Below are positions 392 to 59,065 of a stretch of 64,000 nucleotides of DNA, piece after piece (position 1 is the stretch's first letter; each line of letters begins with the position of its first letter). Origin of the DNA: Candidatus Eremiobacteria bacterium (GTDB lineage: Bacteria > Vulcanimicrobiota > Vulcanimicrobiia > Vulcanimicrobiales > Vulcanimicrobiaceae); contig CAVWUU010000001.1 in NCBI GenBank assembly GCA_963758295.1, positions 1-64,000 of the forward strand. Reading direction: 5' to 3'. The position numbers and the translations under genes are program-made. Under the pieces are notes generated by a model. The model had not been told where the DNA came from, did no database searches, and saw only the letters and a list, made by a program, of their open reading frames with translations.

Positions 392-3300
392 TTAGGGTTC
401 CCCATTTGTTGGGGCCATTTCAGTCAGGGCACTCGGCAGCCGCCCGTCCCGTACTTCGCCCTTCTCGTTAGCTTGCCAGTACTGGCCGGAGCCCACGTCC
501 AGGGCAGTCAGCCACCCTCCGCCGTTGCAGTAGGTGTCGATGCAGACGAGGTACCCCAAGTCAAGGATTTCGCCGGTCTTCTGCGGCGTGTGGCCCACGA
601 CAGCGACCTTGCCTGTGAAGTGCGCCACTGGCTGCTCGCTGTCGAGCGACTGTCGCCGTAGGACGGCTCCCGGCTGGTATCTCAGAGGCAGCCCCGCCCG
701 ATAGTTGGCGTGAACGAAGAAGTGCGTGTCAGTCTCGTGGCGATCCTCGCACCTAGTGAGAAAGGTGCGGTGCAACTCTGGGAGGTCGCTCGGATGATGG
801 ACGCGGTAGGAGCGAAGTGTCTGGTCCCCCCCGGCGCTGTGCCAGCGGCCGAGGGCATCTTGCCCTCCCAGGGCAGCCAGGAATAGCTCCTCGTGATCGC
901 CCTTCAACGGCACCAGCGTGCAGCCACCCACCAGACCCAGCAACAGCTCAACCACACCCTTGCTGTCGGGGCCGAGGTCGATGTGGTTCCCGAGTGTGAC
1001 AACCGTGTCGCCCAGCTGGGGAGCGACGGCCCTGAGCAGGGCTCTCAATGCCTCAGAGCAACCATGGATGTCCCCGATAGCAATCGTTCTGACCCTTGTT
1101 TCGGCCCCGCTCGTTGAGACGCGCCCCTTGGCCCCCTGATCCGCTTTCCCCAGACGGCCACCACGATAGAAGCCCGACGGGTAGATTTCGAGGCCAACAG
1201 GATTCTTTTTCTTCCGCCCCCGGCGGCAGTAGGCATCAATATCCTCCTCACCCGAGAGAAGGAATTTGAGGAAGCTGATGCCGCGGTACTTGCACGTCTG
1301 GCGGACGCTCAGCAGCACGAGAAAGTCGGACAGTCCCTCCTTGCACATGAGACCGTCGGACACAGGGCCATCGCACTACGTTTTCCCCTTGATTTTTAGG
1401 GAATCCTCCAAGGAGCAAAAGACGATGACATGATAGATGGATTATTAATAATTTTATAAGATGAATTTTAGTTTTATTTTGATGTCGATCTGCACTTCTA
1501 AACCTTCGCTATCACGTGGTCCTGAATGCTTCTCTTCGGTCTGGGTTCACTTTTGTTGTGCGATGGCCCTGCCGTCGGACACCTCGCGAGACCAGGCGAA
1601 CGCCTTGATCGCGTGTTCGCCGTGTTGTTGTTCCAGGGTACTCCGTCGTGGTCCAGGAAGGTGAAGAGCCTGCCCTCGTTCTTGAGGAACCGCTTCTGGT
1701 AGCTCTCGGCCAGCTCGGAGCGGTAGACGCGGGCGGTCCAAGTCGCGGAAGAAGCGGGCGACCTCGGCCTTGTGCTTGTGCAGGTGACGCCTCTTCAGCC
1801 CGTATTTGTCGATCGTGTCCGACGATGGACCTGAGCAGCTTGCCGAACTCCCCGCCAGGGCCTTGAACTCCTCATCGTAGGGGCTGCCCATCAGGTCGTC
1901 GTTGATGTCCCGGATGAGGTGGAAGAGGCACGTCTGCTGCTCGCAGGGCAGCGACTCGTAGCCAGGGTAGAAGTCGGACACGAGTACCCCCTTGAAGCCG
2001 CGGAGAAGGTCATGGAGGAAGTCCGCCTCCCGGTTGGGCCGGTAGAAGTACACCACGTCCTCCATGTTCGTCAGCACCCAGACATACCCCTTGCCCTTTT
2101 GCAGGTTGACCTGGGTCTCGTCGACGTGGACCAGCCCGCCCGCCACGATCCTCGCCAGGATTCCTTCCATGTCTGGCCGGTAACGTCTGGCCATCAGGGT
2201 CTTGATCATCAGAAGCTCCATGATGCCGACACGTCAGGCCGAAGCAGTCCTCGAACATGGCCTCCAGTTGCTGCAGGCTGATGCGGTGGACGATGTGCTG
2301 GTACATAGCCCAGCTCTTCAGCCCGTGCAGGTGCTTGTCTCGCCTCTTGTACCGCTCGGGCAAGAACCGCTCTGCAGTCCTCGCACCGATGGCGGACGGC
2401 GGTGCAGCGGATCACCTGCCGGCGGATGCCCCCCGCGGTGAACTTGAGGTCGTAGGCGAGTTTGGACATGCATTCTCTTGCCGAGCTGGGTGATTCGGTT
2501 GCCCTTGCAGAAGGGGCAGGAATCGCTCGTGATCTCGACCTCTCTGTTCACCGGCGGCTTCGACCGCTTCCTTCGCTTCCGCGGCGGCTCAGGCAGGCCC
2601 GCCTGACCGCCTTGCTGGTGCGGACGAAGACCTTGTCGCGTTGGTAGTCGAAGTAGGAACAGCGGTTGACGTGGTCGAAGTCCTGGAGTGCGAACTTGGG
2701 CCGGCACCACTCGCGGCGGCTCGACGGAGCGACCTCGTCCGCCCAGGCGACGGCTGGGCTGAAGACGAGGCACCTCTGTTGCCTTCGCCGCGGCTTCGTG
2801 CCGCCTCACCGATGGCCTGGACGAACTCCGTGACTTTCCTCAAGGCGGCACAGTCCTCGGCGTTGTAGGTGAGCAGCTTGTCCTTCCAGGCGGGATCCCG
2901 GTCCTCCTCCCAGCGTGCCCGCCACACCAGGCTCTGAAGACCGGAGGCGTTCTCCTCCGTCCAGGTGCAGCCGAGGTAGCGGCCGACGTCCTTCAGCCCG
3001 TTGGAGAAGGTGGGGAAGTACACGCTGGCGTGGATCGCGGACAGGACGTTCACGGCGTTGGCGAGCAGGCGGTCCACGAGCTTCTTCCGCTTCACCACCT
3101 TCCTCATCCGCCGCAGCAACTTCTTCTCGTAGCTGCCGTAGTGGAACAGGGCGAAGTCCTCGCGGCCGTCCAGGAGGTCCAGGAAGGCGTCGAACGCCTG
3201 CACCTCTTGGTCCGGGCCATCCGCCCAGAAGGAGTGCATCTTCTGATTGTCGCCCTCGACGACGAGGACGCCCAGCAAGTAGGCGAAGCCGCCGTCCTCG

Positions 3301-4188
3301 CTGCCCTCGGCGTCGAGGAAGACCTGCACCGGCTTCCGCGGGATGTCGGGCGTGCCGTAGACGTGGACCTTCTTCTCGCGGATGGCCAGGGCCTGCAAGG
3401 CGGGGTAGCGGTTGTGGTCTGGTCGCTTGACCCGCTTGCCCCTCTTCCGCGGGCGGAAGGTGCAGGACAGCTGGGTGAGGGTGAAGATGCCCTTGCGGTT
3501 GATAGCGTCCGCAGCTCCTTCTCGCCCACGGTCTCCAGCAGGCTGATGTCGTCGGCCTGCTCCGCCTGCTCGCGGCACCGCTGCCGGAACTCGCAGACCT
3601 GGCAGTGCCCGTTCAGCATCAGTCTGCGGCGGCTCGCCGCCAGCCTGGAGCCGCTCGAGTTCTCCAGCACCTGCTCTGCCTGCCGGTAGAGCTTCGAGTC
3701 CAGGCGGACCTTCCCCAGCCGGCCCTCGGGGCCGCGGGCGACCAGCCCGGCGGTGGGCCGCACTCCCTGCACGCGGGCGAGGGCGAGCCCGAGCACGGCC
3801 AGCAGGACCTTCTGCTGATCGGCCGACCTTATCCCCGTGGTCGTGGAGTACGGGGACGATAGTGGTGGTCCCCCAGCTCGAGGCCCCGTCCGCCCGCTTC
3901 AGCGCGTCGAAACGGAGCGACAGGCCCTCGTCCTCGACGATGGCGTCCGCCAACAGCGGTGTCCCCTCTTCAGCGTCGCGGCGGTGATGGTGGTCCCCCC
4001 GGTGGGCTCCTTCGCCGGAGCGGGCGACGAGCTTGGCGAGGGCCTGCTCCCGCGACGCCGCGTCTGGCCGCCTTGGTCATGGCCTCGTAGTCCGACTCGG
4101 TACCGGTCTCGCCGGCGAGCTTCAGGTGGCCCTTGGTCTTACAGTTCAGATACGCTTCCAGGACTTCCCTCGTGATCTTCATGGCCAT
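392..4188 (-). pseudogene. Passenger fusion: TM0106/RecB-like nuclease + RNase H-like exonuclease + IS66 DDE transposase domain + metallophosphoesterase (frameshifted, MITE-interrupted)
   Basis: Consecutive ORF pieces give MAMKITREVLEAYLNCKTK, HCQVCEFRQRC, VFLDAEG..FHYGSYE..LKDVGRYLG..YNAEDC, CPFC/CEDC, HVDET..VSDFY..CLFHLIRD..EHAIK, then GDIHG..GNHIDLG..GDHE..VGHT..IDT. Confidence 0.8.
1363..1571. mobile_element. 209-bp MITE with ISAs1-like ends
   Basis: Perfect 14-bp terminal IR CAGGGCCATCGCAC (1363-1376 / 1558-1571). 10-bp direct repeat CCGTCGGACA at 1353-1362 and 1572-1581. Interior about 37% GC by hand count, with no transposase. Confidence 0.9.
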
Positions 4189-4397
4189 GATCCCGCCCCC
4201 GAGGTCGGCTCGGGACCGTCCCGCCCGGCGAGCCGTTCCGATGAGGTAGCATGCGCCGCCGACACGGCGCGCCATGGCAAGGACGACCTCATCTGGATCT
4301 GTCTGGTCAGCCTACCCGGCCGGGAGTGGGAAATCGCGGGTGCATCGCCAGCCGCACCGGGATCGATCGCCAGCCATCGGCATCCCGGTCCGTCGGT

Positions 4398-5945
4398 TCA
4401 CGCGGCTCTCTTGCGTCGTGCCGAGGGGTGCGACGCGAACCAGACGTCGGGCAGCAGCTCCTCGAGCTGATCCGCGGGATGGGACGGCAGGCGACGGAGG
4501 ACGTCCTGGAGGTAGGCGAAGGGATCGATGTCGTGGTGCTTGCAGGTGCCGGTCAACGAGTAGAGGACGGCCGCCGTCCGGCCGCCGCGGTCGCTCCCGA
4601 GGAAGGTCCAGTTGCGGCGGCCGATCGCCTGGGCACGGAGCATCCGCTCGGCGAGGTTGTTGTCGATGCTCAGGTCCCCGTGCTCGGGGTAGCGGCAGCA
4701 GCGCCGCCCAGTTGGACTGCGCGTAGGCGATCGCCTGGCCGATCGGGCTCTTGGGCAGCGCCCGGCGGCCCTGCTCGGTCAACCACTCCTCGAAGGCGTT
4801 CAGCAGCGGGACCGCATCCCGCTGGCGCAGGGCGCGCCGGTCCTCGGCCGACAGCTCCGCGGCGTCATGCTCGATCTTGTAGAGCTGCCGGATGCGGGCC
4901 AACGCCGCGTGCGCCGGCACCGGCGCCGAGGTCCGCGACTCGTAGAACTTCCTCCGCACGTGGGCCCAGCACGCGACCTCGATCACGCCCGAGCCGGCGC
5001 AGATCCGGTCGTAGCCGGAGAACGCGTCGGCCTGGAGGTAGCCGCGAAATCCCTTGAGGAACGCCTCCGGCCCGTCCCGCGTCCGCCGCGGCGTGTAGTC
5101 GTAGACCACGTAGGGATGGCGGACGTCCCCGACGTAGACCCAGAACCGCCCGGTGCGGGTGTGCGGCAGCGTCGGGTCCCACACCGGCACCGTGGTGTCG
5201 TCGGTATGGATGACCAGCGAGAGCAGCACCCGCTTGACCATCTCGTTGAACAAGCGGGGTGAGCAGCTCGGCGCAGGAGGCCATCCAGCCGCAGAGCGTG
5301 GCCCGCGACAGCTCCACGCCGTGGCGGGCGAAGATGTCCTCGAGCCGGTACAGCGGCAGGTGGTCGCCGTACTTGCTGGTGATCGTCTGGGCCAGCAGCC
5401 CGGGGCCGGGCAGCCCCTTGTCGATCGGCTGGGGCGGCTTGGCCGCGATCGCGACGTGCTCCTGGCAGGCCCGACAGGCGTAGCGGAAACCGGACGTGCT
5501 GAAGGACCCGCATCGAGGCGGGGACGTACTCGAGCTGCTCGCTGACCTCCTCGCCGATCTTCATCCGCACGCAGCCGCAGTCCGGGCAGGCCAACTCCTC
5601 GGCGGTCAGCTCGTACTCGATCCGCTCGCGGGGCAGGTGCTCGGGGAGCCGCTGCCGCCCACGCCGGCGCCAGCGGCGGCGGCTCGGGCGCCGCGTCCTG
5701 TGGCTCGGGAGGCGCGCCGGGATCGCCCTCGGCGAGTCCTCGGGCTCCTCGTCGGCGAAGAGCCGGAGCTGGTCGGGATCGACGCTCTCCCGCCGGGGGC
5801 CATACTGGCGGCGGAGCAACTGCTCGACCTGGTGCTCCAGCTGCTCGATCCGCCGTTGCGACTCCCGGATCGTGTCCGCCTGCTGGCGGATGATCTCGTG
5901 GCAGAGGGCCAGGTCGTCGGGAAGGGGCTCGTCGGAGTCGCTCAT
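4398..5945 (-). CDS. tnpC: IS66 transposase TnpC (frameshifted in this sequence)
   Basis: Leucine zipper with RRQYGPRRE, LPEHLPRERI, CPDCG, HTDDT, YLQADAFSGY, ACWAHVRRKF and GRRNWTFLGS...LEELLP. Pieces lie in several frames. Confidence 0.92.
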
Positions 5946-5954
5946 GCCAAGATT

Positions 5955-6356
5955 CTACAGTCGAGCCGGACTTCGAAAAGGGGCCTCTCCGGGGATTTCG
6001 ACGGATTCTCGCGAGTAGCGCCGCTGCCGTCGGACGCTGCCGAGATCGACCCCGTCGAGGATCATCATCAGGTCCGCCGCCTTGATCTCGACATGCCCGG
6101 TCGCCTGAGCCGCCGCGGCCGGGAAGCGGACGTTTCCTCTCTCCAGCCGCTTGTACCACATGGCGTACCCATCCCTGTCCCAGTACAGGATCTTTATCCG
6201 ATCGCCACGACGGCTGCGGAAAACGAACAGGTGGCCCGAGAACGGATCGAGCGCCAGGGACGATTCGATGAGATGCGCGAGCGAGTCGAATCCCTTTCGC
6301 ATGTCGGTCGCGTCGGAGCAGAGGAAGACCTTCACGGTCGGGGGCCAGCTCAGCAT
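5955..6356 (-). CDS. tnpB: IS66 accessory protein TnpB (Orf2)
   Basis: TDMRKGFDSL, LFVFRSRRGDRIKILYWDRDG, KRLERG motifs. Confidence 0.95.
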   Translation of the reverse strand: MLSWPPTVKVFLCSDATDMRKGFDSLAHLIESSLALDPFSGHLFVFRSRRGDRIKILYWDRDGYAMWYKRLERGNVRFPAAAAQATGHVEIKAADLMMILDGVDLGSVRRQRRYSRESVEIPGEAPFRSPARL

Positions 6357-6742
6357 GATCGGCCCTCCAGCACGGCCAGGACCTGACCGAGGGTGCGCGG
6401 GTCGAAACCCGAAGGGACCCGGACGGTCGGGCCGGTCGGCAGGACGATCTCGATCGGAGGCGAGGGACGGGGCGAGGCCGCCTCCAGGTCCACCAGCCGC
6501 ACCGGCAGGAAGGCCGGGGCCGCTTCGGTGGGCTCGCCATCCCGGTCAGCCTGGGTCGTGGCCGACGCCTCGCGGTCGCGGCGGGCCAGCGCCTGCCGCC
6601 ACCAGCGGAAGGCGCCGTCCTTCAGCCCCTCGCGGAGGCAGAAGGCGCGGACGGTGAGCCCGCTGCGCTGCTGCTGTCGGATCGTCCGCCGCCAGAACTT
6701 CTCCCGGATGGGATCACGCTGTCTGCCGCCGCGTCTGGCCAT
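6350..6742 (-). CDS. tnpA: IS66 accessory protein TnpA (HTH)
   Basis: FWRRTI..QQRSGLTVRAFC..WWR, FLPV, IEIVLP..VRV motifs; overlaps the tnpB start. Confidence 0.9.
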   Translation of the reverse strand: MARRGGRQRDPIREKFWRRTIRQQQRSGLTVRAFCLREGLKDGAFRWWRQALARRDREASATTQADRDGEPTEAAPAFLPVRLVDLEAASPRPSPPIEIVLPTGPTVRVPSGFDPRTLGQVLAVLEGRSC

Positions 6743-6820: not shown

Positions 6821-6886
6821 TTCCCCTCGACGTCACGCGGAAGCGCGGCGCGGGTGGGCGTGGCCGAGCACGCCAGGCGGGTCCTC
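6821..6886 (+). pseudogene. Continuation of TolC-like fragment after the IS66 element
   Basis: PLDVTRKRGA.VGVAEHARRVL follows directly on VSIPL at 255, then breaks off. Confidence 0.6.
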
Positions 6887-6989
6887 CACGCCAGGGGCCG
6901 GGGCACGGGCAACGTCTCGGCGATCTTCCGCGGGACGCTCATCCTCAACGGCAGCGCAACCCGCTGCGGCTCAATTCGGCCTGAGCCGG
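6883..6989 (+). repeat. Diverged copy of 10062-10169 (3' end of a paralog of the LEPR-xLL protein)
   Basis: Both encode LHARGRGTGNVSAIFRGTLIL..G..NPLRLNSA-stop, with mostly synonymous differences. Confidence 0.85.
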
Positions 6990-7064: not shown

Positions 7065-8926
7065 TCAGTGGCCGGGCTCGGACGGCCCCGCGCGGACCCG
7101 GCCGGGGCGACGGCGGGGATCGTCGTACCCCGGGAGCTTGCCCCCGAACGACTTCTGGATCGCCCCCATGGTGCTGCTGGCGCCGCCTTTTCGGGGTCGG
7201 ACACGCTCCGGATCCTCGGGACGCCGCGACGGACCATCAGGGGCCGCGCGCCCCGTCAGCCGGGCCGGTTCCGCCCTCGGCAGGGCGATCGTGTCGGGGG
7301 CGAGGGCCTTCTTCGGGAGGCTCGCCTGGAGGCTCGTGCGCTGCGCCGGCGTCATCTTGGCGAGCAGCGCCTCGAGTCGGCTCTCCGCGTTCTCTTCCAC
7401 CTCCGCCGCCGCGGGGGCGGCGACGCCGACGGCCCGGCGACCGGGCTTCCTCGGCCAGGACCCGCGGGTTGACCTCGGTCCAGCGGAGATGCAACTCGCC
7501 GTTGATCCGCCCGCGGTCCTCGGGCCTCGGCAGGGCGAAGGACAGGACCACGCCCTGCTCCTCGCCGTACGAGACGGTCGGCCCCGACACCCGGGCGTTC
7601 GCGGTCGTCTTGAATTGCGAGTCGATGACGGCGACGGCCGAGGCGCCGCCCCGCCAGGGCAGGCGGAGCGTGTACGTGTTATTGAACAGGTCGAGGTAGT
7701 GCTGCGACTGGCTGCAGAACCCCTCGTTGCCCCAGTTCCGCACGAAGATCGCCCAGGTCTCGTCGGCCGGGTCGTCCTTGACGCGGATCGCCATCACGTA
7801 GACCGGGTGCAGTTCGGTCGGGCAGTCGTGCTCGCAGTCGAGCCCCAGCAGCCCGGTGACGATCGCGTAGCTGCCGTCGACCAGGGCCCGGGCGTCCTTG
7901 TCGGACTTGTCCACGGCCTTGTGGAACGCGTTCCACCAGGGCGTGTCGAAGTGGTCGATGGTCTCGCCGAATCGAACTCGAGGCCGAGCCCCAGCCCGCT
8001 GGCTTGGACGTGGTCATGCCGGCCCGGTTCGGGGGGAGGAGCCGGAAGTTGTAGTCGTCGTCGGCGATCGGGTCGGAGTGCGATTCCCAGGTGATCGGGC
8101 CCTCGTAGGTGGCGGGCATCCAGTTGACGTGCCCGTGGGTCTCGCCGATCTCGCCCCGCTTCAGGGCGTCGGCCGTGCAGAGGATGTTGACGAAGGTCCC
8201 CGCGGTATCGATCGAGGGGGCCTGGGTCGTGCAGGGGGCCTGGACCACCTTGCCGCAGAGCTGGTGGACGTCCGGCGGGGCGCCGGCGTGGTCGACCTGA
8301 TAGGCCCAGCGGGGGTTGAGCGGGATCGCGTTGTCGTCGACGGCGTCCCAGACGAGGTCCATCGGGGCCGCAGGCGGCGGCGAGCCGGCCGTCGGCCCGG
8401 ACTGCGACCGTCACGATGACGAAGGCGTTGCCGAGGCCCTTGCACTGGTCGCCGGTGCCGTCGTCGCCGGAGCGGCCCCAGTAGCCGTTGTCGCTGTAGC
8501 CGTCGTCCTCGTACCCGAGCCGGAGGAAGAGCTGCGCGGGGTCGACCCCCTTGGGGATGACGGCCGGGCGGCCGGCGACCCCCTGGATCCGCACCAGCCC
8601 CGACTCGGCGCCGGGGATCCAGACCAGGCCGTGATAGAGCCGGTCGGCGTTGGGGCCCCGCGGGTCGACGTAGCGCTTCCACGTCTTGCCGTGCCCCCCC
8701 GTCTGGGCGCAGCCCCCGGCGGTGACCGTCACCGTGTCCCCCGGCCGGAACCGGATGCTGCCGTACTCGGTCAGACGCTGCTTGACGTTCGGCTCGTCGA
8801 TCCGCCAGCGGACCGTCGTCGCGTTGACGACCTGGCACGTGACGTGCTCGTCGGCCCGGGCGGTCGTGAGACCGCCGAGCGAGGCGGCGGCCAGGAGGGT
8901 CGGCTGTCGTTCCCGAGGTTCGCCAT
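7065..8926 (-). CDS. Hypothetical secreted protein (several frameshifts)
   Basis: Signal-like start (LLAAASLGGLTTARA) followed by successive GC3-biased ORF pieces 7794-8996, 7679-8362, 7237-7914 and 7065-7400. Confidence 0.6.
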
Positions 8927-9422
8927 GGCATGGTCCTCGATCCCTGTCGAGGCGGGGGCGCGGGCGGTACGCAAGACGCCCCGGACCGGCATGCACCCGC
9001 GAGTCCGTCCCCGCCGCAGGGCCACTCCTCTGAGAGCGGTGGCTGGTCGGCGGCTATGCTCGAAATCGGAGGAATCGCGGGTCGAATCCCCGACGGAAAT
9101 GGGTCGGCCGCGCTTCCTCCGGGCGAGGCCGAGCCGGATCCCCGGCTCTCTACGGCCTCCGATGTGCCGGCAAAACGCTCGATGACCCGGGAGCGTATTC
9201 CGCCGCCTCGCATTCAGGGTCGTCAAGAAAAAACAAATTGCCATTGCGCTTTTTCTTAGGGATTGTGGCCGGATCGATGCCGGATCGCGACCCGACCCTT
9301 CAAGGGGATGTCGGCCGCCGGGTCCCGGAGTGGGGGCTCCTGGACCCGGGTCCCGCGATCATCGATCCGATCCGTTGTTGATACCGAGGCGACGGGAACG
9401 GACCGGAGGAGGAGCGATCACC

Positions 9423-10164
9423 ATGAAACGGAAGAAGCACAGGGGCTCCCGCGGCCCCGGTCGGCCGGACCCTCGAGAGTCCTGGAGCCGCGGAATCTGC
9501 CGTCGGCGTCCACGCCCTCATCGCGGGCCGCGGCCGGCGCTGGGGCGCAGGCCCGCGTCGGGCCCAGGCGGCGGGACGTTCGCGCTGGGCCAGACGCAAC
9601 TCAACCTCGCGGCACAGCGTCGACCGGCTCGCTCGACCGTCGCGCAGGTCAGCGGCTCGCCGACGCCCACGAGCGGCTGCGCGACGAACTTCACCGCGGT
9701 CTTCTACGGGCCGTACATCATCGGCCCGCCGCGGTTCTCCGGCGATTCCTCGCAGACCTACACGAATCGGGCGGGACCTCCAGCTCGTTCCTGCACGGCA
9801 ACCTCCAGCTCGGCTTCCAGACGCCGTCGTCGGCCGTCGCAGGGCCCCGAGCGGCACGCGCCACGCTGTATCCCAAGAATTACCTGATGACCGGCAACTA
9901 CCTGGACCTCCAGCTCCAGGGCGACCCCACCGACTCCCGCGACGGCGCGCCACGTCGTTCACCTGGATCGTCAGCTCGGCCAGCTCGGGGATGTACGCCA
10001 ACGCCTCGGGCTCGGGGACGGTGCAACTGGTCTACCACCCGGGCAGCCGCGGCGGCGGCTACCTCCACGCCCGCGGCCGGGGCACCGGCAACGTCTCGGC
10101 GATCTTCCGCGGGACCCTCATCCTCGACGGCACCATCAACCCCCTCCGCCTCAATTCGGCCTGA
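9423..10164 (+). CDS. Planctomycete-type extracellular protein with LEPR-xLL-like N-terminal motif (frameshifted)
   Basis: GGAGGAG RBS, MKRKKH...LEPRNLPS, beta-rich body; ends NPLRLNSA-stop. Confidence 0.65.
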
Positions 10165-10253
10165 GCCGGCGCCGGGGAGCGGGGGCGCGGGCTCGTCCGC
10201 GCCCGACCCCCGCCGACGCCCGCGGACCGCGGCGGTGAAGGCTTTGTAGGTTC

Positions 10254-17884: not shown

Positions 17885-17910
17885 AAACGGCCCGGCCGCA
17901 AGGCCGTTTC
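17885..17910. terminator. Hairpin between convergent genes
   Basis: AAACGGCC...GGCCGTTT stem. Confidence 0.55.
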
Positions 17911-17912
17911 TC

Positions 17913-17940
17913 GTCATCCTGAGCCTGTCGAACGAAGGAC
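17913..17940 (+). repeat. REP-like element GTCATCCTGAGCCTGTCGAA
   Basis: Related copies at 49769-49790 and, degenerate on the minus strand, at ~40907-40928. Confidence 0.55.
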
Positions 17941-17961
17941 GGGCGCATACCAGCACGATCC

Positions 17962-26455: not shown

Positions 26456-29400
26456 TTACTCCGAAAGCGCCATGGTGATGACGCGTTCCTGTTCGACGGC
26501 GTGCGCGCCCGGATAGCCCTCCGAAGGCGAAGCGCGGTAGCCGCGGCCGGCGTAGCCGATGTCGAGCGGCTGTTTGAGTTTCTCGAGCAGACGGCGACGC
26601 ACGTAGGCACGCGCGCCCATGTTCTTCGGCTCTTCTTGCACCCAGACGAGCTGCTTGAGGTTCGGATACGACGCGAGTAGTGCGTTGATTTCGTCGCTCG
26701 GCATCGGCGAAAGCTGCTCGATGCGAACGATGGCCGTCTTCTTCATGTCGCCATGTTGCTCGGCGTTAATGAGATCGTAGTAGATCTTGCCCGTGCACAG
26801 GAGAATCCGCTCGATCTTCTTCCTGTCGGTAACATTCGGGTCGTCGATGACCGGCTTGAACGACCCGGTTGCCATGTCGTCGATGGAACCGGAAGCGGCT
26901 TCGGCACGCAGCAAGGACTTCGGCGTCATGACGACGAGCGGCAGCGCATTCGCCGCGCTCGCCTGCATGCGCAACAAGTGGAAGTAGTTGCCCGCGTTCG
27001 ACGGATACGCTATGCGAATGTTGCCTTCGGCCGCCAATTGCAGGAAGCGTTCGAGACGCGCGCTCGAGTGTTCCGGACCCTGGCCTTCGTAGCCGTGCGG
27101 CAGGAGCAGCGTCAGACGCGACGTCTGTCCCCATTTGGCTTGGCCGGCCGCGATAAATTGATCGATGATGATCTGCGCACCGTTGACGAAGTCGCCGAAC
27201 TGCGCTTCCCAAAGCACGAGCGAATTCGGAACCGCGGCGGCATAGCCGTACTCGAATCCTACGCACGCGTACTCGGAGAGGGCGCTGTTATGGATTTCGA
27301 AACTGGCCTTTGCACCAGGAAGATGCTGCAGCGGCACATATTCGGTGTTGGTTCCGGGATCGTGCAAGACCGCATGGCGATGGCTGAACGTTCCGCGCTC
27401 CGTGTCCTGGCCGGTGATACGGATCGGCACGCCGGAGCTCAACAACGACGCAAACGCCAGCGCTTCCGCCATGCCCCAATCGACGAGGCCTTTCTCGGCA
27501 ATAAGAGCTTTACGGCGATCGAACTGTGTCTGGAGTTTCTTGTTTAACGTGAAGCCGTCGGGAACGGCAACCAGTCTGTTCGACCAATCGAGCAGCTTCT
27601 CCCGATCGATCGGCGTAAGAGGCGCCGTTTCCGGACGCGCCGCGAGCGCGATCTTCTCGATCATGCCGTTACCGTGCTGTTCCTTGACGTTGCGATACGC
27701 CTCTTGCAAACGCGCCGTAGCGTCCGCAATCATCTGGCTCGCCTGTTCGGCGGTGATGGTGCCTTGCGCGATCAGTTTGTTTGCGAAGAGTTCGCGCGCT
27801 GTCGGATGCGACTTGATCTTTTCGTACATCAACGGCTGAGTGTATGCCGGCTCGTCCTGTTCGTTGTGGCCCGAACGGCGGTAGCCGATGAGATCGATAA
27901 GCACGTCGCGATCGAAGCGGCGGCGGAATTCAACGGCAAGATGAACGGCGGCGATGCACGCGTCGATGTCGTCGGCGTTCACGTGCACGATCGGCATGTC
28001 GAAGCCTTTGGCAAGATCCGAAGCATAGCGCGTCGACCGTGAATCGCGGTAGTCGGTCGTGAAGCCCACCTGGTTGTTGGCGATGAAGTGGAACGTGCCG
28101 CCCGTTGCATAACCCGGAAGCGACTGCAGGTTCAGCACTTCGGCGACGATGCCCTGACCCATAAAGGCGGCGTCGCCGTGAATGAGGATCGGCGCAGCGT
28201 TCTGCACGGTCTGCTGCGGAACGTTTTGCGAATGATCGGTTTGCAGCGCCCGAGTGCTGCCTTCGACGACCGGATCGACGGCCTCGAGGTGACTCGGGTT
28301 GTGCGCGAGCGTTACCGTAATCGATTTGCCGTTTTCGGTTTGATACGTGCCGGTTGCGCCGTGATGGTATTTTACGTCGCCCGTCACGTCGTCGTCACCC
28401 ACCTCGCCGCGTTGATGCGCTGCTTCGAATTCACCAAGCAGTTCTTCATACGGCATATTCACGACGTGCGCGATGACGTTCAACCGGCCGCGGTGCGCCA
28501 TGCCGAGCACGGCGTTCGGCGTGCCGTCGTCGGCAAGCATCTCGAGCATTTCTTCGAGCATCGGAACCATGACGTCGAGACCTTCGCCCGAAAACGTCTT
28601 CTGACCGAGGAACGTCTTGCGCAGATAGCGTTCGAACGTTTCTACCTTCGTCAACCGCTGCAAGAACTGAATCTGCCGGTCTTTCGAAAGCGCGACTTTA
28701 TGCGCACCGGCTTCGATGTACTCACGCAGCCAGCGGCGTTGTTCCGTGTTTGAAATGTGCTCGACTTCGTACGCGATCGTCGACGCATACGTGTCGTGCA
28801 GTTTTGGCAGAATGTCGGCAAGCGTATTTCCCGGCACTTTGACATTCAGCACGGAAGCCGGAATCGCGGCTTGCAGCGCCGGCGTCAGGCCGTAGGTTGC
28901 CGGATCGAGTTTCGGATCGCCGACCGGTTGCGAGCCGAGCGGGTCGAGACTCGCCGCTAGGTGTCCGTGCGTGCGATACGCGGAAACGATCGCCATTGCC
29001 GCGGCGACCGCACGCAGCATTTCGTCCGGCTGCGAAGCCGGCGCTGTAGTGGCCGCAACGATCGACGGCATCGCGGAGACTTCCGCATGCGGCGCGGGAC
29101 CGGCGGTAAGGCCGAGCGCGCTGAACAATACTTCGTAAAAACCGTCGGCGCCTTGCAGCAACTGATCGACGCGTCGCAGATATTCGCCCGACTGCGCGCC
29201 TTGAATGACGCGATGATCGTACGTGCTCGTCATCTGCATTACTTTGGAAACGCCGAGCGAGCGCAGCGTCGATTCGCTCACGCTTTGGAATCCCGGCGGA
29301 TAGCCGATCGACCCGGTCGCGAGAATCGCGCCCTGTCCGGCCATCAATCGGGGAACAGATGCGACCGTGCCGATACCGCCCGGATTGGTCAGCGTACAAT

Positions 29401-30743
29401 GACGCGCCTTGCAGATCGTCCGCGCCGAGTTTATTGTCGCGCGCTTTGGCGACGAGTTCTTGATACTTGCCGTAGAACGCCCCGAAGTCCAAATCGGCGG
29501 CGTTCTTGATCACCGGCACGACGAGGAAACGCGAACCGTCTTTGCGCTCTGCGTCGACGGCAAGCCCGAGATGCACGCCGGGTTCGATGCGAAGCGGCGC
29601 GCCTTTTTCGTCGCGCCGGAAGCTGTAAGTAATAAACGGCAATTCTTTCGCGGCGCGCACCATTGCATAGGCGACGATGTGCGTGAAAGAAATCTTCTCG
29701 CTGCGCTTCGCGCTCTTGATCGCGTTGTTCAGTTCCTTGCGACGCGCGTCCATTACGTCGACCGCAAGCGTACGGAAACTGGTCGCCGTGGGAATCGTTA
29801 GCGACTGCTCCATGTAGCCCGTGAGCGCGGCGGCGGGGCCTTTGAGCGGCGTCACGTTCGCGCCGGCTGCAACCGGCGGCAGCGGCGGCTGATTGGCGCC
29901 GCCCGTTGCGGCAGACGGTTTACGCCTTGCGGTCGCGGCTTGCGAATGCACGTCGGAACGCAAGATCATGCCGTTGGGTCCGGAGCCGTTCACCAGCCCC
30001 AGATCGACTTCTAGTTTGCGCGCAATGCGGCGCGCTTGAGCCGAAGCGACGAGGTCGCCGGTGCGCGGTTGGGCGGGCGCTGACGATGCTACGGGTGCCG
30101 GTGCGCTCGCGGCTTTCGGCGCGGCGACCGTTACGCCGGCGGCTGCAGACGGCGCGGCGTTTGCATCGATTTGCGCGAGCTTCGCGCCGACGGCGACCGT
30201 GTCGCCATCTTTGACCAGCAGCGACGTTACGAGTCCCGCGGACGGCGCGGGCACTTCGACGTCGACTTTGTCCGTGGTAACCTCGACGATTGTATCGCCT
30301 TCGTTGACGAAATCGCCCGGCTTCACGCGGAATTCGACTATGGAACCCTCGGTGACGGACTCGCCCATCTCGGGAAGCACCACGTCAACGATTTTCGGAG
30401 GACCGCTCGGAACGGGCGCGGCAGCGGGCGCCGTCGCGACGGCGTCAGCTTTCGCGGCGCCGTTCTTCGATGCGCCGTTCGTTTGCGCCTTAGCTTTGCT
30501 CGTGTCGATTTCAGCCAAAACGGCACCGACGGCGACAGCGTCGCCTTCTCCACCGAAAAGCTGAGTGATGACGCCGGATGCGGTCGCGGGAACTTCCACG
30601 TCCACTTTGTCGGTCGTCACGTCGACGAGAGTGTCGCCCTCGTCTACGAAATCGCCGACGTTCTTACGCCATTCGACGATGGAGCCTTCGGTGACTGACT
30701 CACCCATCTCGGGCAACGTCACTTTCACCATCGCGTCCGCCAC
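26456..30743 (-). CDS. sucA: Multifunctional 2-oxoglutarate dehydrogenase: two lipoyl domains + E2 succinyltransferase + E1 (one frameshift near 29397)
   Basis: Two LPEMGESVTEG..TTDKV lipoyl domains, a PSBD-like segment, (F)TLTNPGGIGT, TYDHRVIQGA, GMAHRGRLN, HGDAAF.GQG, WEAQFGDF, GPEHSSAR. Confidence 0.93.
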
Positions 30744-55778: not shown

Positions 55779-56381
55779 GTGGGCACGCAGCGCAGCGCAG
55801 GCCGCCGGTTCGATCACGATTACGGCGTCACCACGCAGGCCATTCTGTTTTTGACCGATCTGGATCCCGACGCAGTGGGCGACGCCGGATCGCATGCAAC
55901 CCATTACGAGCCCGTGCCCGTCGGCGATTTCCGCTCGCTCATTTCGCTTGTGCCAAAAGACGTGATCGCGCACTCCACATTCGTCGACGTAGGCGCCGGA
56001 ATGGGGCGCGCGGTGCTCTTGGCATGCGAGTACTCCTTCGCGCGGGTTACCGGCATCGAAGTTTCGCCGGGTCTCTTCGAGGTCGCTCGGGAGAACATTG
56101 CGCGCGCCTCCCGCCGTCGCCGCCGATGCAACGATTTGCGGATCGTGCGCGCCGATGGGCGGATCTGGAATTATCCGCCGGGCGATCTGGTCGTCTTTAT
56201 GTATAACCCGTTCGATTCCGAAGCCATGCGCGCGACGCTCGGCGCGGTTGCGCACCGGCGCAGCCCCGGGGCCACATGGCTGCTGTACCACACGCCGGTT
56301 GAGCGTAAAATAATCGATGATGATCCACATTGGGTCGAAATCGGTGCGACGGCGGCAGGGATCGTCTATCGGCACGACTAG
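55779..56381 (+). CDS. Class I SAM-dependent methyltransferase
   Basis: FVDVGAGMGR, GIE, MYNPF. Confidence 0.88.
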   Translation: MGTQRSAGRRFDHDYGVTTQAILFLTDLDPDAVGDAGSHATHYEPVPVGDFRSLISLVPKDVIAHSTFVDVGAGMGRAVLLACEYSFARVTGIEVSPGLFEVARENIARASRRRRRCNDLRIVRADGRIWNYPPGDLVVFMYNPFDSEAMRATLGAVAHRRSPGATWLLYHTPVERKIIDDDPHWVEIGATAAGIVYRHD

Positions 56382-59065
56382 CGGGCGCACGCTTCCTACC
56401 GGAACCGTCACGTTCTTGTTTTCGGACATCGAAGGCAGCACCGCGCGGTGGGAGGCGAATCACGAGGCGATGCAACGGGCGTTGCGCCGTCACGATGAAA
56501 TCGTGCACGACATCGTCCGCCGCTCCAACGGTTACGTCTTTAAAACCGTCGGTGACGAGTTTTGCACCGCGTTCCAACATGCGGCCGATGCGGTGGCGGC
56601 CGCTCTCGCGATTCAGCAACAACTGGCGGCGGAAGATTTCGACGACGTAAGCGGCTTGCGCGTTCGCATTGCGTTGCACCGCGGAAAGACCGATGAGCGC
56701 GGCGGCGATTACTACGGGCCGCCCGTTAATCGCGTTGCGCGGCTACTCGCCACCGGGCACGGCGGTCAAATACTGCTTTCCGGTGCGGTTGAGGACGCCG
56801 TGTCCCGTGCGCTTCCCGCACAAGCGCATCTGATCGACCTTGGCTGGCACCGTCTCAAAGATTTAGAAGAGCCGGAGCACGTTTTTCAGCTTGGCACGCC
56901 GGAGCTAGAAGAATCGTTCGCCCCGCTCAAATCACTGAATACCGGCGCGCATAATCTGCCGCAGCAGACGACGACGTTCGTGGGACGCGAGACCGACGTA
57001 GCGGAGCTCGAAGGACTGTTAGGGCAAGTGCCGCTTGTGTCGGTCGTAGGCGCCGGCGGCGTTGGAAAAACCAGGCTCGCCTTGCAAGTTGCCGCGGACG
57101 TGTTGCACGATTTTCGCGACGGCGTTTGGTTCGTCGATCTGGCGCCGATCTCGGATCCCGATCTCGTGGAAAGCACTATCCTTACGAGCCTCGGCGTCGG
57201 ACAGAGCGGCAATCGTTCGGCGCGCGACGCGCTCGTGCAGCACGTTGCTTCCCGTCATCTCTTGATCGTTCTCGACAATTGCGAGCATCTGATCCACGCC
57301 GTTGCCGCCGTGGTCGCAGCGGTGCTCGCGGCATCACATTCGCTCCGATTGCTGGCGACAACGCGCGAACCGCTGAATATCTCGGGAGAAACGGTCTACC
57401 GTCTGCAAACCCTCGGCCTCGCGGAAGCGACGCAGTTGTTCGTCGATCGCGCGCGTTCTGCAGCGGCCGACTTTACCGTATCGGAAAGCACGATCCCGGT
57501 CATCGAGGAAATCTGCCGGCGTGTCGACGGGCTTGCGTTAGCGATCGAACTGGCCGCAACGCGCGTACGCGCCCTCTCGCTTCAGGAGATCGATAAACGG
57601 CTGGATGCCCGCTTTAGAATCCTGCGCGGCGGAGACCGAACGGCCTTGCCAAGGCAGCAAACGTTGCACGCTCTCATCGACTGGAGCCACGAACTCCTCA
57701 ACGACGTCGAAAAAATTCTCTTCCGGCGCCTCGCCGTGTTCTCCGGAAGTTTCACGCTCACCGCCGTGACGGAAGTTTGCACGAACGACGATCTCGATGA
57801 ATACGACACTACCGACGTGTTGCTTGCGCTCGTTGAAAAGTCGCTCGTGGTCGTGGATGCATCGAATGCGCGAACAAGATACCGGCTACTGCAGTCGATT
57901 CAAGATTACGCTCACGAACGAATCGACGAGGCGCGGGAATGCGACGCGGTCTCCCGATGTCACGCTATGTACTTCGCCGGCTTCACGGAAGATGCATACG
58001 AAGAGTGGGATACGAATCCGGCCCCCGATTGGCTTGCCCGCACCGGTGCCGAGCTCGATAATATTCGCGGCGCGCTCTCGTGGGCCATTACCGAGAACCA
58101 CGATCGCCCTACCGGCGAGCGGATCGTTGCAAGTGCCTTGCCGATCTTTTTACGTCTTGCATTGCTCGATGAAGCGATCCAATGGGCGCAACGGGCCCTT
58201 TCAAGCAGTGCCGCGATTCCGCTTAACGTCGAGGGCCGTTTACAGCTCGCGCTCTCGATGCTCTACAATAACGAGCTCGACGAAACACAGGCGTTGGCAG
58301 CGGCGGAACGAGCCGCATTGTTACTCTCGCAAACTCCGGACGTCAGTCAAACCGTCCGCGCATACGGGCAGCTCGCGCAAGCCTATGCGAGGCAACAACG
58401 CTGGGAAGATGCGCAACATTATGGATCGGATGCCCTATTCCGCGCAAGGTCGCTGGGAGACCCTGAGACTTCTTGCGATCACGCTGCAACGCGCAGCAAT
58501 AACCTACCGGCCAGACGAAATCTCCGACGCGCGGACACACTTTGCCGAGGCAGTAGCGCTTTTCGAATCCATCGGTAGAAACGACGATACGGGAAAATGC
58601 CTTATGTGGTGGGCCGCAGCCGAAGCCGAAGTACGGAATATGGAACGCGCAATGCAGCTCCTGCAGCGCGCGCTTCCTTTAGTAAGCGGAGACGTGCGTC
58701 TTTTTGCGCTGCTGAATATTGGTGAATACGCCCTGCTTCAAAACGAATATCCGGCAGCTCTTGCGTGGGCGAAGGATGCGTTCAAACTCGCTATGGAACA
58801 CCGGCACACCGGAGCAGAAGCGCTCGCTGCTGCCTTTGCTGCGGCGGCAACCGGCGACGAGACGCTAAAGGCCGTTAGGCTGTACAGCTTTGCGCGCACG
58901 CATTTTCCTGGAAATCAATGGCCGCCGCCGCAATACGGAAGCGCGCCGTTCGAGCGCCTCGAACAATCAATAGCATTGCTGCCTTCTGACGAAAGGGCCG
59001 CAGCGGAGCAGGAGGGACGCGGCTGGAGCGCCGACCGCGCTTTCGCCGAAGTTCTAGACGGCTAA
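56317..59065 (+). CDS. Adenylate/guanylate cyclase + STAND ATPase + helical repeat protein (frameshift near 58465; start uncertain)
   Basis: FLFSDIEGST, KTVGDEF, NRVARL, GAGGVGKT, LDNCEH, GLALAIELAA, RQQTL..LIDWS. Confidence 0.9.

Follow-up and report, generated by a model that had tools for sequence, protein, structure and literature searches.

Insertion sequences (ISs) of the IS66 family are defined by inverted repeats starting with GTA and by an 8-bp target duplication. An active element of their ISBst12 group, for example, has GTRAC repeats and an 8-bp duplication, and a 2026 paper calls the transposition mechanisms of IS66 “insufficiently characterized” (PMC12898284). A second group of described proteins, the TM0106 family (TIGR03491, COG2251), combines a Cas4-like domain with an RNase_H_2 domain; COG2251/PF13482 has been predicted to be a 3'-5' exonuclease, and a PD-(D/E)XK partner domain was noted (Majorek et al., 2014; PMC3985635). 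The two have been recorded together: a table in the 2012 paper on Candidatus Solibacter usitatus lists “transposase IS66: pfam03050 + COG2251” four times, with no comment alongside the table entries (PMC3469429). Here we analyze a gene of this kind in a Candidatus Eremiobacteria bacterium (assembly GCA_963758295.1, here G000), located within the first 64,000 nucleotides of contig CAVWUU010000001.1, a stretch referred to below as the window. The gene, termed the fusion gene, had been described from its sequence as a possible undescribed system, an IS66-borne fusion of a RecB/Cas4-like nuclease, an exonuclease, a transposase and a phosphoesterase (the original prediction).

The window gene is a phosphoesterase-tailed variant of a known, unstudied kind of IS66-family transposase. 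It probably represents one copy of the transposase found in a large, unstudied IS66 subgroup in which a TM0106-type module replaces the N-terminal region of TnpC. This module would comprise a Cas4-like domain with a predicted Fe-S cluster, its cutting residues lost, followed by an intact DEDDy exonuclease, and the window copy would belong to a small clade that gained a C-terminal PrpA/ApaH-like domain with consistently changed metal-site motifs. The domain architecture, the conservation of residues, the presence of IS66-type ends and 8-bp duplications around relatives, and the existence of one element with the fusion as its only DDE protein are established.

Domain Architecture and Conserved Residues

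The fusion gene can be read on the minus strand as a single gene of about 1,190 codons, from the first ATG at 4188 to the TAA at 394-392, with its open reading frame (ORF) pieces lying in three frames. The frame of roughly 1,200 amino acids (aa) that had been proposed for this interval, after removal of an inserted element and correction of indels, is thereby borne out, and its coordinates were right. From N- to C-terminus the gene encodes a Cas4-like Fe-S domain, an RNase_H_2 (DEDD) domain, a zinc finger with an IS66 DDE core, and a Metallophos domain (Table 1). In the per-domain check against Pfam that the prediction had called for, the window ORF pieces matched RNase_H_2 (PF13482; 88.4 bits, cut-off 22, E 6.8e-25), DDE_Tnp_IS66 (PF03050; 63.6 bits, cut-off 23.1) and Metallophos (PF00149; 31 bits, cut-off 21.5), all above cut-off; the last of these, the predicted calcineurin-like phosphoesterase, lies in frame at the C-terminus in a stretch free of frameshifts. 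The NCBIfam model TIGR03491 (TM0106 RecB-like) was matched with 133.6 bits (cut-off 97.45), and NF033517 (cut-off 180 bits) by a window fragment with 84.2 bits. A frameshift-aware alignment to the intact reference homolog P0062 (1275 aa) consists of two segments, the first joining residues 47-950 to window 4300-1576 (76% identity over aligned codons) and the second residues 949-1275 to window 1362-382 (71%). The 18 frameshifts that this alignment needs all fall between window 4059 and 1623, leaving 392-1352 free of them, and the frameshift-corrected gene has no in-frame stop ahead of the true TAA.

Residue conservation was scored, in the numbering of relative P0001, over 68 near full-length divergent members, comprising 65 of 150 phmmer representatives chosen by length and coverage together with P0001, P0062, and P0091. 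The DDE triad (D688, D737, E856) is invariant (68/68 each), as are D290, E292, and D443 of the exonuclease, in which position 352 is always acidic (E in 55, D in 13) and Y439 is found in 66 of the 68. Zinc-finger residues C556, C600, and C603 are likewise present in 68/68 each, while C559 is C in 61 and H in 6. The exonuclease and DDE residues on which the original prediction depended are thus conserved across the family, and the window copy retains every conserved codon, including those for the early Cys and the CxxC-x5-C cluster, the DEDD and DDE residues, and the zinc-finger Cys that had been read from it. Intact relatives match PF03050 with 90-113 bits and cover positions 3-380 of the 387 in NF033517 with 173-200 bits, three of them above its cut-off (L021, 199.5; P0023, 183.9; P0121, 182.2).

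An AlphaFold2 model of the tailed homolog P0025, built from a 77-row alignment, has a mean predicted local distance difference test score (pLDDT) of 82 and a predicted template modeling score (pTM) of 0.65; it is confident at residues 1-465 and 550-930, with the Metallophos tail poorly modeled (pLDDT mostly <50). Foldseek searches with this model recovered the ISCth4 transposase (E 1e-7), Cas4 in Cas4-Cas1-Cas2 complexes (8d3l; also 4r5q) at template modeling (TM) scores to target of 0.60-0.63, and PolB/DnaQ/TREX1-type exonuclease domains.

The family shares several traits with the IS66 family ISs, that is, with TnpC and with the single-ORF ISBst12 group (e.g., ISDge4): PF03050 and NF033517 match over nearly the whole model, the CPxC...CxxC zinc finger and a DDE triad with the NNNxAE motif are present, and relatives have GTA-starting inverted repeats and 8-bp duplications, with tnpA/tnpB beside some copies. 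It departs from them in carrying a TM0106-type module of ~550 residues where TnpC has ~170 residues before the zinc finger, in the extra C-terminal add-ons, and in that most copies are without tnpA/B, which when present are usually convergent rather than upstream.

The N-terminal domain has the fold of Cas4 (PDB 8d3l, 4r5q) and its four-Cys Fe-S site, C14, C194, and C197 being kept in 68/68 each and C203 in 67/68, and intact relatives match TIGR03491 over model positions 1-461 of 462 with 219-241 bits. Unlike in Cas4 and the RecB-type PD-(D/E)XK nucleases, the catalytic D...(D/E)xK is missing from the family. The motif II Asp is kept in 45/68; at the acid position of motif III (113) the five commonest residues (L35 R14 V5 S3 F3 of 68) are all non-acidic, and the Lys position (115) reads V17 S9 H7 I6 T6. 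In a profile search of the PDB, the PVEYK of Cas4 aligns to pvlfv of the family (8d3l, E 0.0017), and the corresponding motif III of the window copy is equally altered (Table 1). We consider the nuclease motifs not conserved because the motif II and III positions vary in this set, and on these motifs the domain is not credible as a nuclease. The RecB/Cas4-like nuclease of the original prediction is upheld in its four Fe-S-type cysteines and not in its (D/E)xK, which is absent across the family. Further differences from Cas4 are the scores with the Cas4 equivalog model TIGR00372, which at 20.1-28.7 bits stay below the cut-off of 65, and the integrase, which is of the DDE type and not Cas1.

With the TM0106 family the fusion shares the succession of a Cas4-like domain (CxxC-x5-C) and RNase_H_2, the latter with the motifs DxE, HYxxYE, and YNxxD. 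The chromosomal representative in the host, in contrast, keeps D-T-K and QxxxY where the fusion family has L/R and V/S/H at motif III, and it continues into a helicase, not a transposase. This host protein of ~1,100 aa (G000:C4:518192-519466, locus L121), in which the TM0106 module precedes the helicase, also gives weak matches of its helicase part to the PADLOC models MkoA and Hhe. Of 18 genomes searched from the same family, the unpublished G010 and G019 among them, 14 gave a match to TIGR03491, and not every match is confirmed as the long helicase form. Another point of comparison is MrfB (YprB) of Bacillus subtilis, which we take to belong to PF13482: its DnaQ-like acidic residues recur in the fusion exonuclease, whereas MrfB has TPR repeats and acts in repair together with a helicase. 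It is the one relative whose activity has been assayed, and in the presence of Mg2+ it degrades linear dsDNA (bioRxiv 10.1101/426304).

Table 1. Features of the fusion gene and its surroundings in the window.
Feature	Position	Strand	Details
Whole fusion gene	392..4188	-	~1,190 codons read through; one MITE and 18 frameshifts
Cas4-like Fe-S domain	3570..4188	-	TIGR03491; Cys codons 4143, 3604, 3595, 3577; (D/E)xK absent; motif III VPVLHDH
RNase_H_2 / DEDDy 3'-5' exonuclease domain	2826..3323	-	PF13482; D 3314, E 3308, E 3128, Y 2867, D 2855
Zinc finger CPxC...CxxC, IS66 part	2376..2520	-	Cys codons 2518, 2509, 2385, 2376
IS66-type DDE core	1572..2230	-	PF03050, NF033517; D 2122, D 1975, E 1618
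Target-site duplicate TGTCCGACGG, upstream copy	1572..1581	.	
MITE-like insertion, 209 bp, AT-rich, non-coding	1363..1571	-	17-nt inverted repeats
Target-site duplicate TGTCCGACGG, downstream copy	1353..1362	.	
Transposase core C-terminal end (LSVRQTCKYRG...FLKFLLS) and linker	1118..1352	-	
PrpA/ApaH-like metallophosphoesterase tail	395..1117	-	Altered motifs GDIHG, GNHIDLG, GDHE; Pfam; weak NCBIfam matches; no frameshift
IS66 tnpC, frameshifted	4312..5945	-	At least 3 shifts near 5489, 5254, 4698
IS66 tnpB	5955..6356	-	NF033819, 107.9 bits vs 50
IS66 tnpA	6350..6742	-	NF047593, 56.5 bits vs 28
L019/L021-like inverted repeat (lead only)	7121..7141	-	3 mismatches in 18 fixed positions; no partner found

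Integrity of the Window Copy

The window copy is interrupted by a short AT-rich insert resembling a miniature inverted-repeat transposable element (MITE): it is non-coding, its 17-nt terminal inverted repeats are 94% complementary, it is flanked by a 10-bp direct repeat, TGTCCGACGG, that represents the target duplication, and its DNA folds as a hairpin (z -3.44). The insert has no match in Rfam, and the multi-copy trait of MITEs was not seen, no second copy being found in the host genome, which is 82% complete. The excision of 1363-1581 suggested in the original prediction is exact, corresponding to the insert plus one duplicate. Because the insert separates the DDE domain from its C-terminus, the copy cannot work; it is dead and non-functional.

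The 18 frameshifts are more likely to be consensus errors than products of decay. That they are real, the window gene being an old decayed pseudogene, is somewhat unlikely, though it has several points on its side: the frameshift density is ~100x that of the host genes in the window, gaps in the host genes at 10-20 kb, when compared with a relative, come only as compensated pairs, so that errors would have to be local, the neighboring tnpC is frameshifted too, and the MITE makes the copy dead in any case. The ratio of nonsynonymous to synonymous substitution rates (dN/dS) between the window copy and others, 0.22-0.35, reaches values slightly above the 0.19-0.29 between intact copies, and yet is far from 1. 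Decay would also have had to produce 18 shifts without any in-frame stop and to spare every catalytic codon. Only three other copies have 8-12 shifts (L048, L049, and L052). They are members of the same highly abundant subfamily and are found on contigs of 138-516 kb in metagenome-assembled genomes (MAGs), contigs that we infer from their size and names to come from long-read assemblies. Six further members of this subfamily, located on short contigs or in a complete genome, have 0-1 shifts, and 48 other loci have 0-3, 31 of them none. The rarer Metallophos stretch at 392-1352 again has no shift. If consensus errors are the cause, this is a warning for annotation, as a copy of this gene that lies on a long MAG contig may be mistaken for a decayed pseudogene.

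Distribution of the Family and Prior Record

Intact fused proteins of ~950 aa number in the thousands, are annotated as “IS66 family transposase” and occur across many bacterial phyla. A phmmer search with P0001 against 1.84 billion cluster representatives gave 8002 matches at E<=1e-3 and 1149 at E<=1e-30, and the best 150 are nearly all co-linear with the query over residues ~1-915, at 32-49% identity. A search limited to proteins of 796-2270 aa gave 1432 relatives. All of the 120 listed among these combine PF03050 with PF13482 (14 also have Cas_Cas4) and most are ~949 aa long, so that intact homologs are fused and do not encode the parts as separate genes; one of them bears the NCBI name “IS66 family transposase [Singulisphaera sp. 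PoT]”. In the ESM Atlas, P0001 falls among clusters automatically named “IS66 family transposase”, 100% of whose members carry the two Pfam families. Of at least 601 pattern matches in species-representative genomes, at least 582 encode relatives. The 78 loci kept for analysis are labeled as Planctomycetota, Acidobacteriota, Deltaproteobacteria, Cyanobacteria, Nitrospira, Omnitrophota, Verrucomicrobia, Bacteroidetes, Alphaproteobacteria, Cupriavidus, and one Nitrososphaerales MAG. In a plasmid collection it was found in 3 of 72,556 records.

The occurrence of the gene is sporadic. Of 60 host relatives, among them the unpublished genomes G010 and G054, none was found to have it, and no second copy of it, or of IS66, was found in the host genome; the closest DNA relative, 89.6% identical over 2.6 kb, comes from a MAG labeled Isosphaeraceae. 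Singulisphaera sp. PoT has one full copy, and the MAG containing locus L021 has one full copy plus, on another contig, a 67%-identical match to the last ~500 bp.

The proteins are not an undescribed system, since databases already name them as IS66 family transposases and the domain pair stands in the 2012 table (PMC3469429). The original statement that the architecture lacks functional characterization is in keeping with the literature searched, in which IS66 reviews were not fully covered and neither a functional study nor a paper devoted to the fusion was found.

The Phosphoesterase Tail and Other C-terminal Modules

The combination of all four domains in a single chain is real and recurrent. 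PF03050 and PF00149 are joined in nine clusters at 90% identity, six of them with full-length proteins (1170-1299 aa) and one with 18 member sequences on 10 contigs, which shows that the phosphoesterase join is not peculiar to this assembly. C-termini were tabulated for 124 proteins (P0001-P0120, P0271-P0274), of which 23 without the anchor motif were excluded. Among the remaining 101 with a recognizable core end, about two thirds have a short tail, ~22 carry an unknown module of ~110 aa, 7 have Metallophos (two following the 110-aa module), and 1 has an RRM. On a core-only tree (a quick IQ-TREE run with 66 of 121 rows and 2 outgroups, 55 rows having been dropped for absent anchors or short cores) the Metallophos-tailed proteins stand at no fewer than three places, at least in this sampling; tailed proteins are scattered over the core tree, and therefore modules move between cores, in agreement with the swappable C-terminal domain foreseen originally.

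Similar to the PrpA/PrpB and ApaH-type metallophosphoesterases, the fused domain has the GDIHGC start motif and a Pfam Metallophos match. It differs from them at the metal site, where the window tail keeps GDIHG and has GNHIDLG and GDHE, departing from the canonical set GDxHG / GDxxDR / GNHE. In the 10 fused domains compared (the window and the nine clusters) GDIHG is kept in 10/10, GD is changed to GN in 9/10, Arg is absent in 10/10, and GNHE reads GDHE in 9/10 or GEHE in 1/10; standalone phosphoesterase relatives, at most 54% identical to the fused domain, keep D and N in 80/80. Because the changes are consistent in the fused set and absent in the standalone relatives, the tail can thus be viewed, on sequence grounds, as a derived, conserved variant of a PrpA/ApaH-like metallophosphoesterase. 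A metagenome scan with the Metallophos domain yielded 80 loci encoding standalone phosphoesterases, with the fusion encoded by 0/80. Given its small size and its consistent Asp/Asn swap, the tailed clade offers a defined test case for an add-on function.

Insertion Elements Around Relatives and the Setting in the Window

The clearest element is at L021, in a MAG labeled Gemmatales, where a 3510-bp unit lies between GTACGCCTCCGGTGAACCACGT and GTACGCGTCCGGCGAATCACGT, inverted repeats that start with GTACGC and agree at 19/22 positions, and has a perfect duplication of 8 bp, GCCCGTTG, on either side. Its genes are a fusion gene encoding 914 aa and, in convergent orientation, tnpB and tnpA, these two scoring above the NCBIfam cut-offs, and there is no tnpC; as judged from this gene content, the fusion is the element's only DDE transposase. 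Two further units, L019 and L050, are 5.56-kb copies in one MAG that are 99.9% identical and end in perfect 22-nt repeats of the L021 type, with 8-bp duplications (8/8 and 7/8). These hold the fusion gene and a convergent tnpC-tnpB-tnpA set, one copy having a 1.5-kb insertion in tnpC. At L038, 30/34 repeats surround a fusion gene together with a tnpC-tnpB-tnpA set, and L002 and L036 have tnpA/B nearby as well. Compared with the tnpC of its own element, the DDE half of the fusion shows just 23% identity.

Several other loci show rearrangements of their own. At L067 (5700-9866) a perfect 332-bp inverted duplication, which includes a reversed N-terminal gene fragment, flanks the fusion gene, and at L036 (5602-11040) a close relative of the window gene, at 79-84% DNA identity, is broken by two ~1.3-kb insertions. 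In L048 (5358-6044) and L049 (5315-6000), which come from different MAGs, ~650 bp upstream of the gene are common to both at 88% identity and encode a C-terminal piece of a helicase, which may be a shared target for insertion.

In the window, tnpA, tnpB, and tnpC lie directly upstream of the fusion gene and on the same strand. The original description of the gene as IS66-borne is not confirmed in that form: no inverted repeats or target duplication enclosing the fusion gene and tnpABC were found by an inverted-repeat search, by the repeat consensus of L019/L038, by local alignments, or by a degenerate L019/L021 repeat pattern, the best local alignment of candidate end regions scoring 28, equal to the best shuffle. 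Window 1 to ~10,225 has no counterpart in five same-genus genomes (including the unpublished G010), and synteny begins at ~10,225. Because the gene is sporadic, without a same-genus counterpart and with a close cross-phylum copy, the first ~10 kb of the contig are an acquired, strain-specific island at the contig end, unless the sequence there is a chimeric join.

Within this region, a ~115-bp direct repeat (6876-6989 and 10054-10169; 89% identical) encodes the C-terminal end of a plus-strand ORF up to its TGA, with one copy just upstream of tnpA and the other at the inner edge of the island, ~60 bp before synteny. Overlapping minus-strand ORF pieces in different frames at 7237-8996 (7237-7914, 7679-8362, and 7794-8996), without Pfam match, may represent one secreted-looking gene frameshifted like its IS neighbors.

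Several observations weigh against a family of active IS66 transposases of which the window holds a copy. The missing ends in the window are one. A k-mer scan for the ends of solitary copies in 53 loci gave convincing repeats only at L019 and L038, besides odd long duplications at L013 and L067; the breakpoints of L062/L063 and L048/L049 show no inverted repeats; and DNA homology between genomes mostly ends at the ORF. Copies are few and divergent, numbering 1-3 per genome over 10 genomes or records. P0062 (174.6 bits) and P0001 (172.7) fall just below the NF033517 cut-off. The signs that favor consensus errors as the source of the frameshifts are indirect, and the part played by the exonuclease in the family is a conjecture.

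We nevertheless regard the fusion as the transposase of its elements, the better of the alternatives, that it is a passenger in canonical IS66 elements and is moved by TnpA/B/C, being improbable. A passenger would fit the tnpA-tnpB-tnpC genes directly upstream in the window, the L019/L050 unit and L038, where the fusion and a canonical tnpC share one inverted-repeat pair, and the tnpA/B near L002 and L036. It would not explain L021, which has intact ends and a perfect duplication in the absence of tnpC, nor the 72 of 78 loci with neither tnpA nor tnpB within the flanks examined (6/78 have them nearby). Its orientation to tnpABC varies, from tandem in the window to convergent in L019, L038, and L002, and a mere passenger would not need an invariant DDE triad. 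Even less probable is a domesticated transposase or defense-like gene with swappable C-terminal sensor or effector modules, which would suit the low copy number, the solitary position of the gene in most loci, the lack of detectable ends in most of them, and the variation of the C-terminus (none, ~110-aa module, RRM, or Metallophos), but is opposed by the sporadic spread with cross-phylum near-identity to the Isosphaeraceae-labeled copy, by the clear insertion signatures in L021, L019, and L050, and by PADLOC giving weak Cas4 matches only and 52 loci having no conserved neighbor other than tnpA/B/C, so that the defense-like cargo of the original prediction is not supported.

Possible Role of the Additional Domains

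For the IS66-type transposase that we favor, a division of labor may be envisaged in which the DDE core would cut and join the element at its GTA-type ends, the dead Cas4-like Fe-S domain would hold the DNA end, the DEDDy exonuclease would trim the 3' strand of the donor or of an excised intermediate, and the tail, where present, might bind or act on a phosphorylated ligand or DNA end. Should transposition involve the exonuclease, it would represent a novel means of DNA-end preparation by a DDE enzyme and a natural parallel to Cas4-assisted integration. Cas4-Cas1 fusions, in which an end-handling module is joined to an integrase, provide a functional analogy (PMC5704561). A stronger and unlikely version is that of a single-chain machine: the Fe-S domain would grip the end, the exonuclease (DEDDy) would shorten the 3' strand to a set length, and the IS66 DDE core would integrate it. 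Were it true, Cas4-Cas1 prespacer processing would have a DDE-based counterpart, TnpA and TnpB would be dispensable in most members, and the phosphoesterase of the window clade, with its swapped Asp/Asn metal ligands, would add a step of end chemistry or sensing.

Other Features of the Window

Three features lie outside the island. At 26456-30743 (minus strand), an E2-E1 fused 2-oxoglutarate dehydrogenase (OdhA/Kgd-like) is encoded by two overlapping ORFs, with its 2-oxoacid_dh domain interrupted at profile positions 151 and 169, pointing to a single frameshift within a housekeeping gene. A ~45-bp repeat at 17909-17956 recurs at G000:C4:706015-706534 and elsewhere in dozens of copies, some of them in arrays with a 96-bp period. 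Finally, two overlapping plus-strand ORFs at 56317-59065 combine an adenylate/guanylate cyclase domain, a STAND NTPase (NB-ARC) and TPR repeats.

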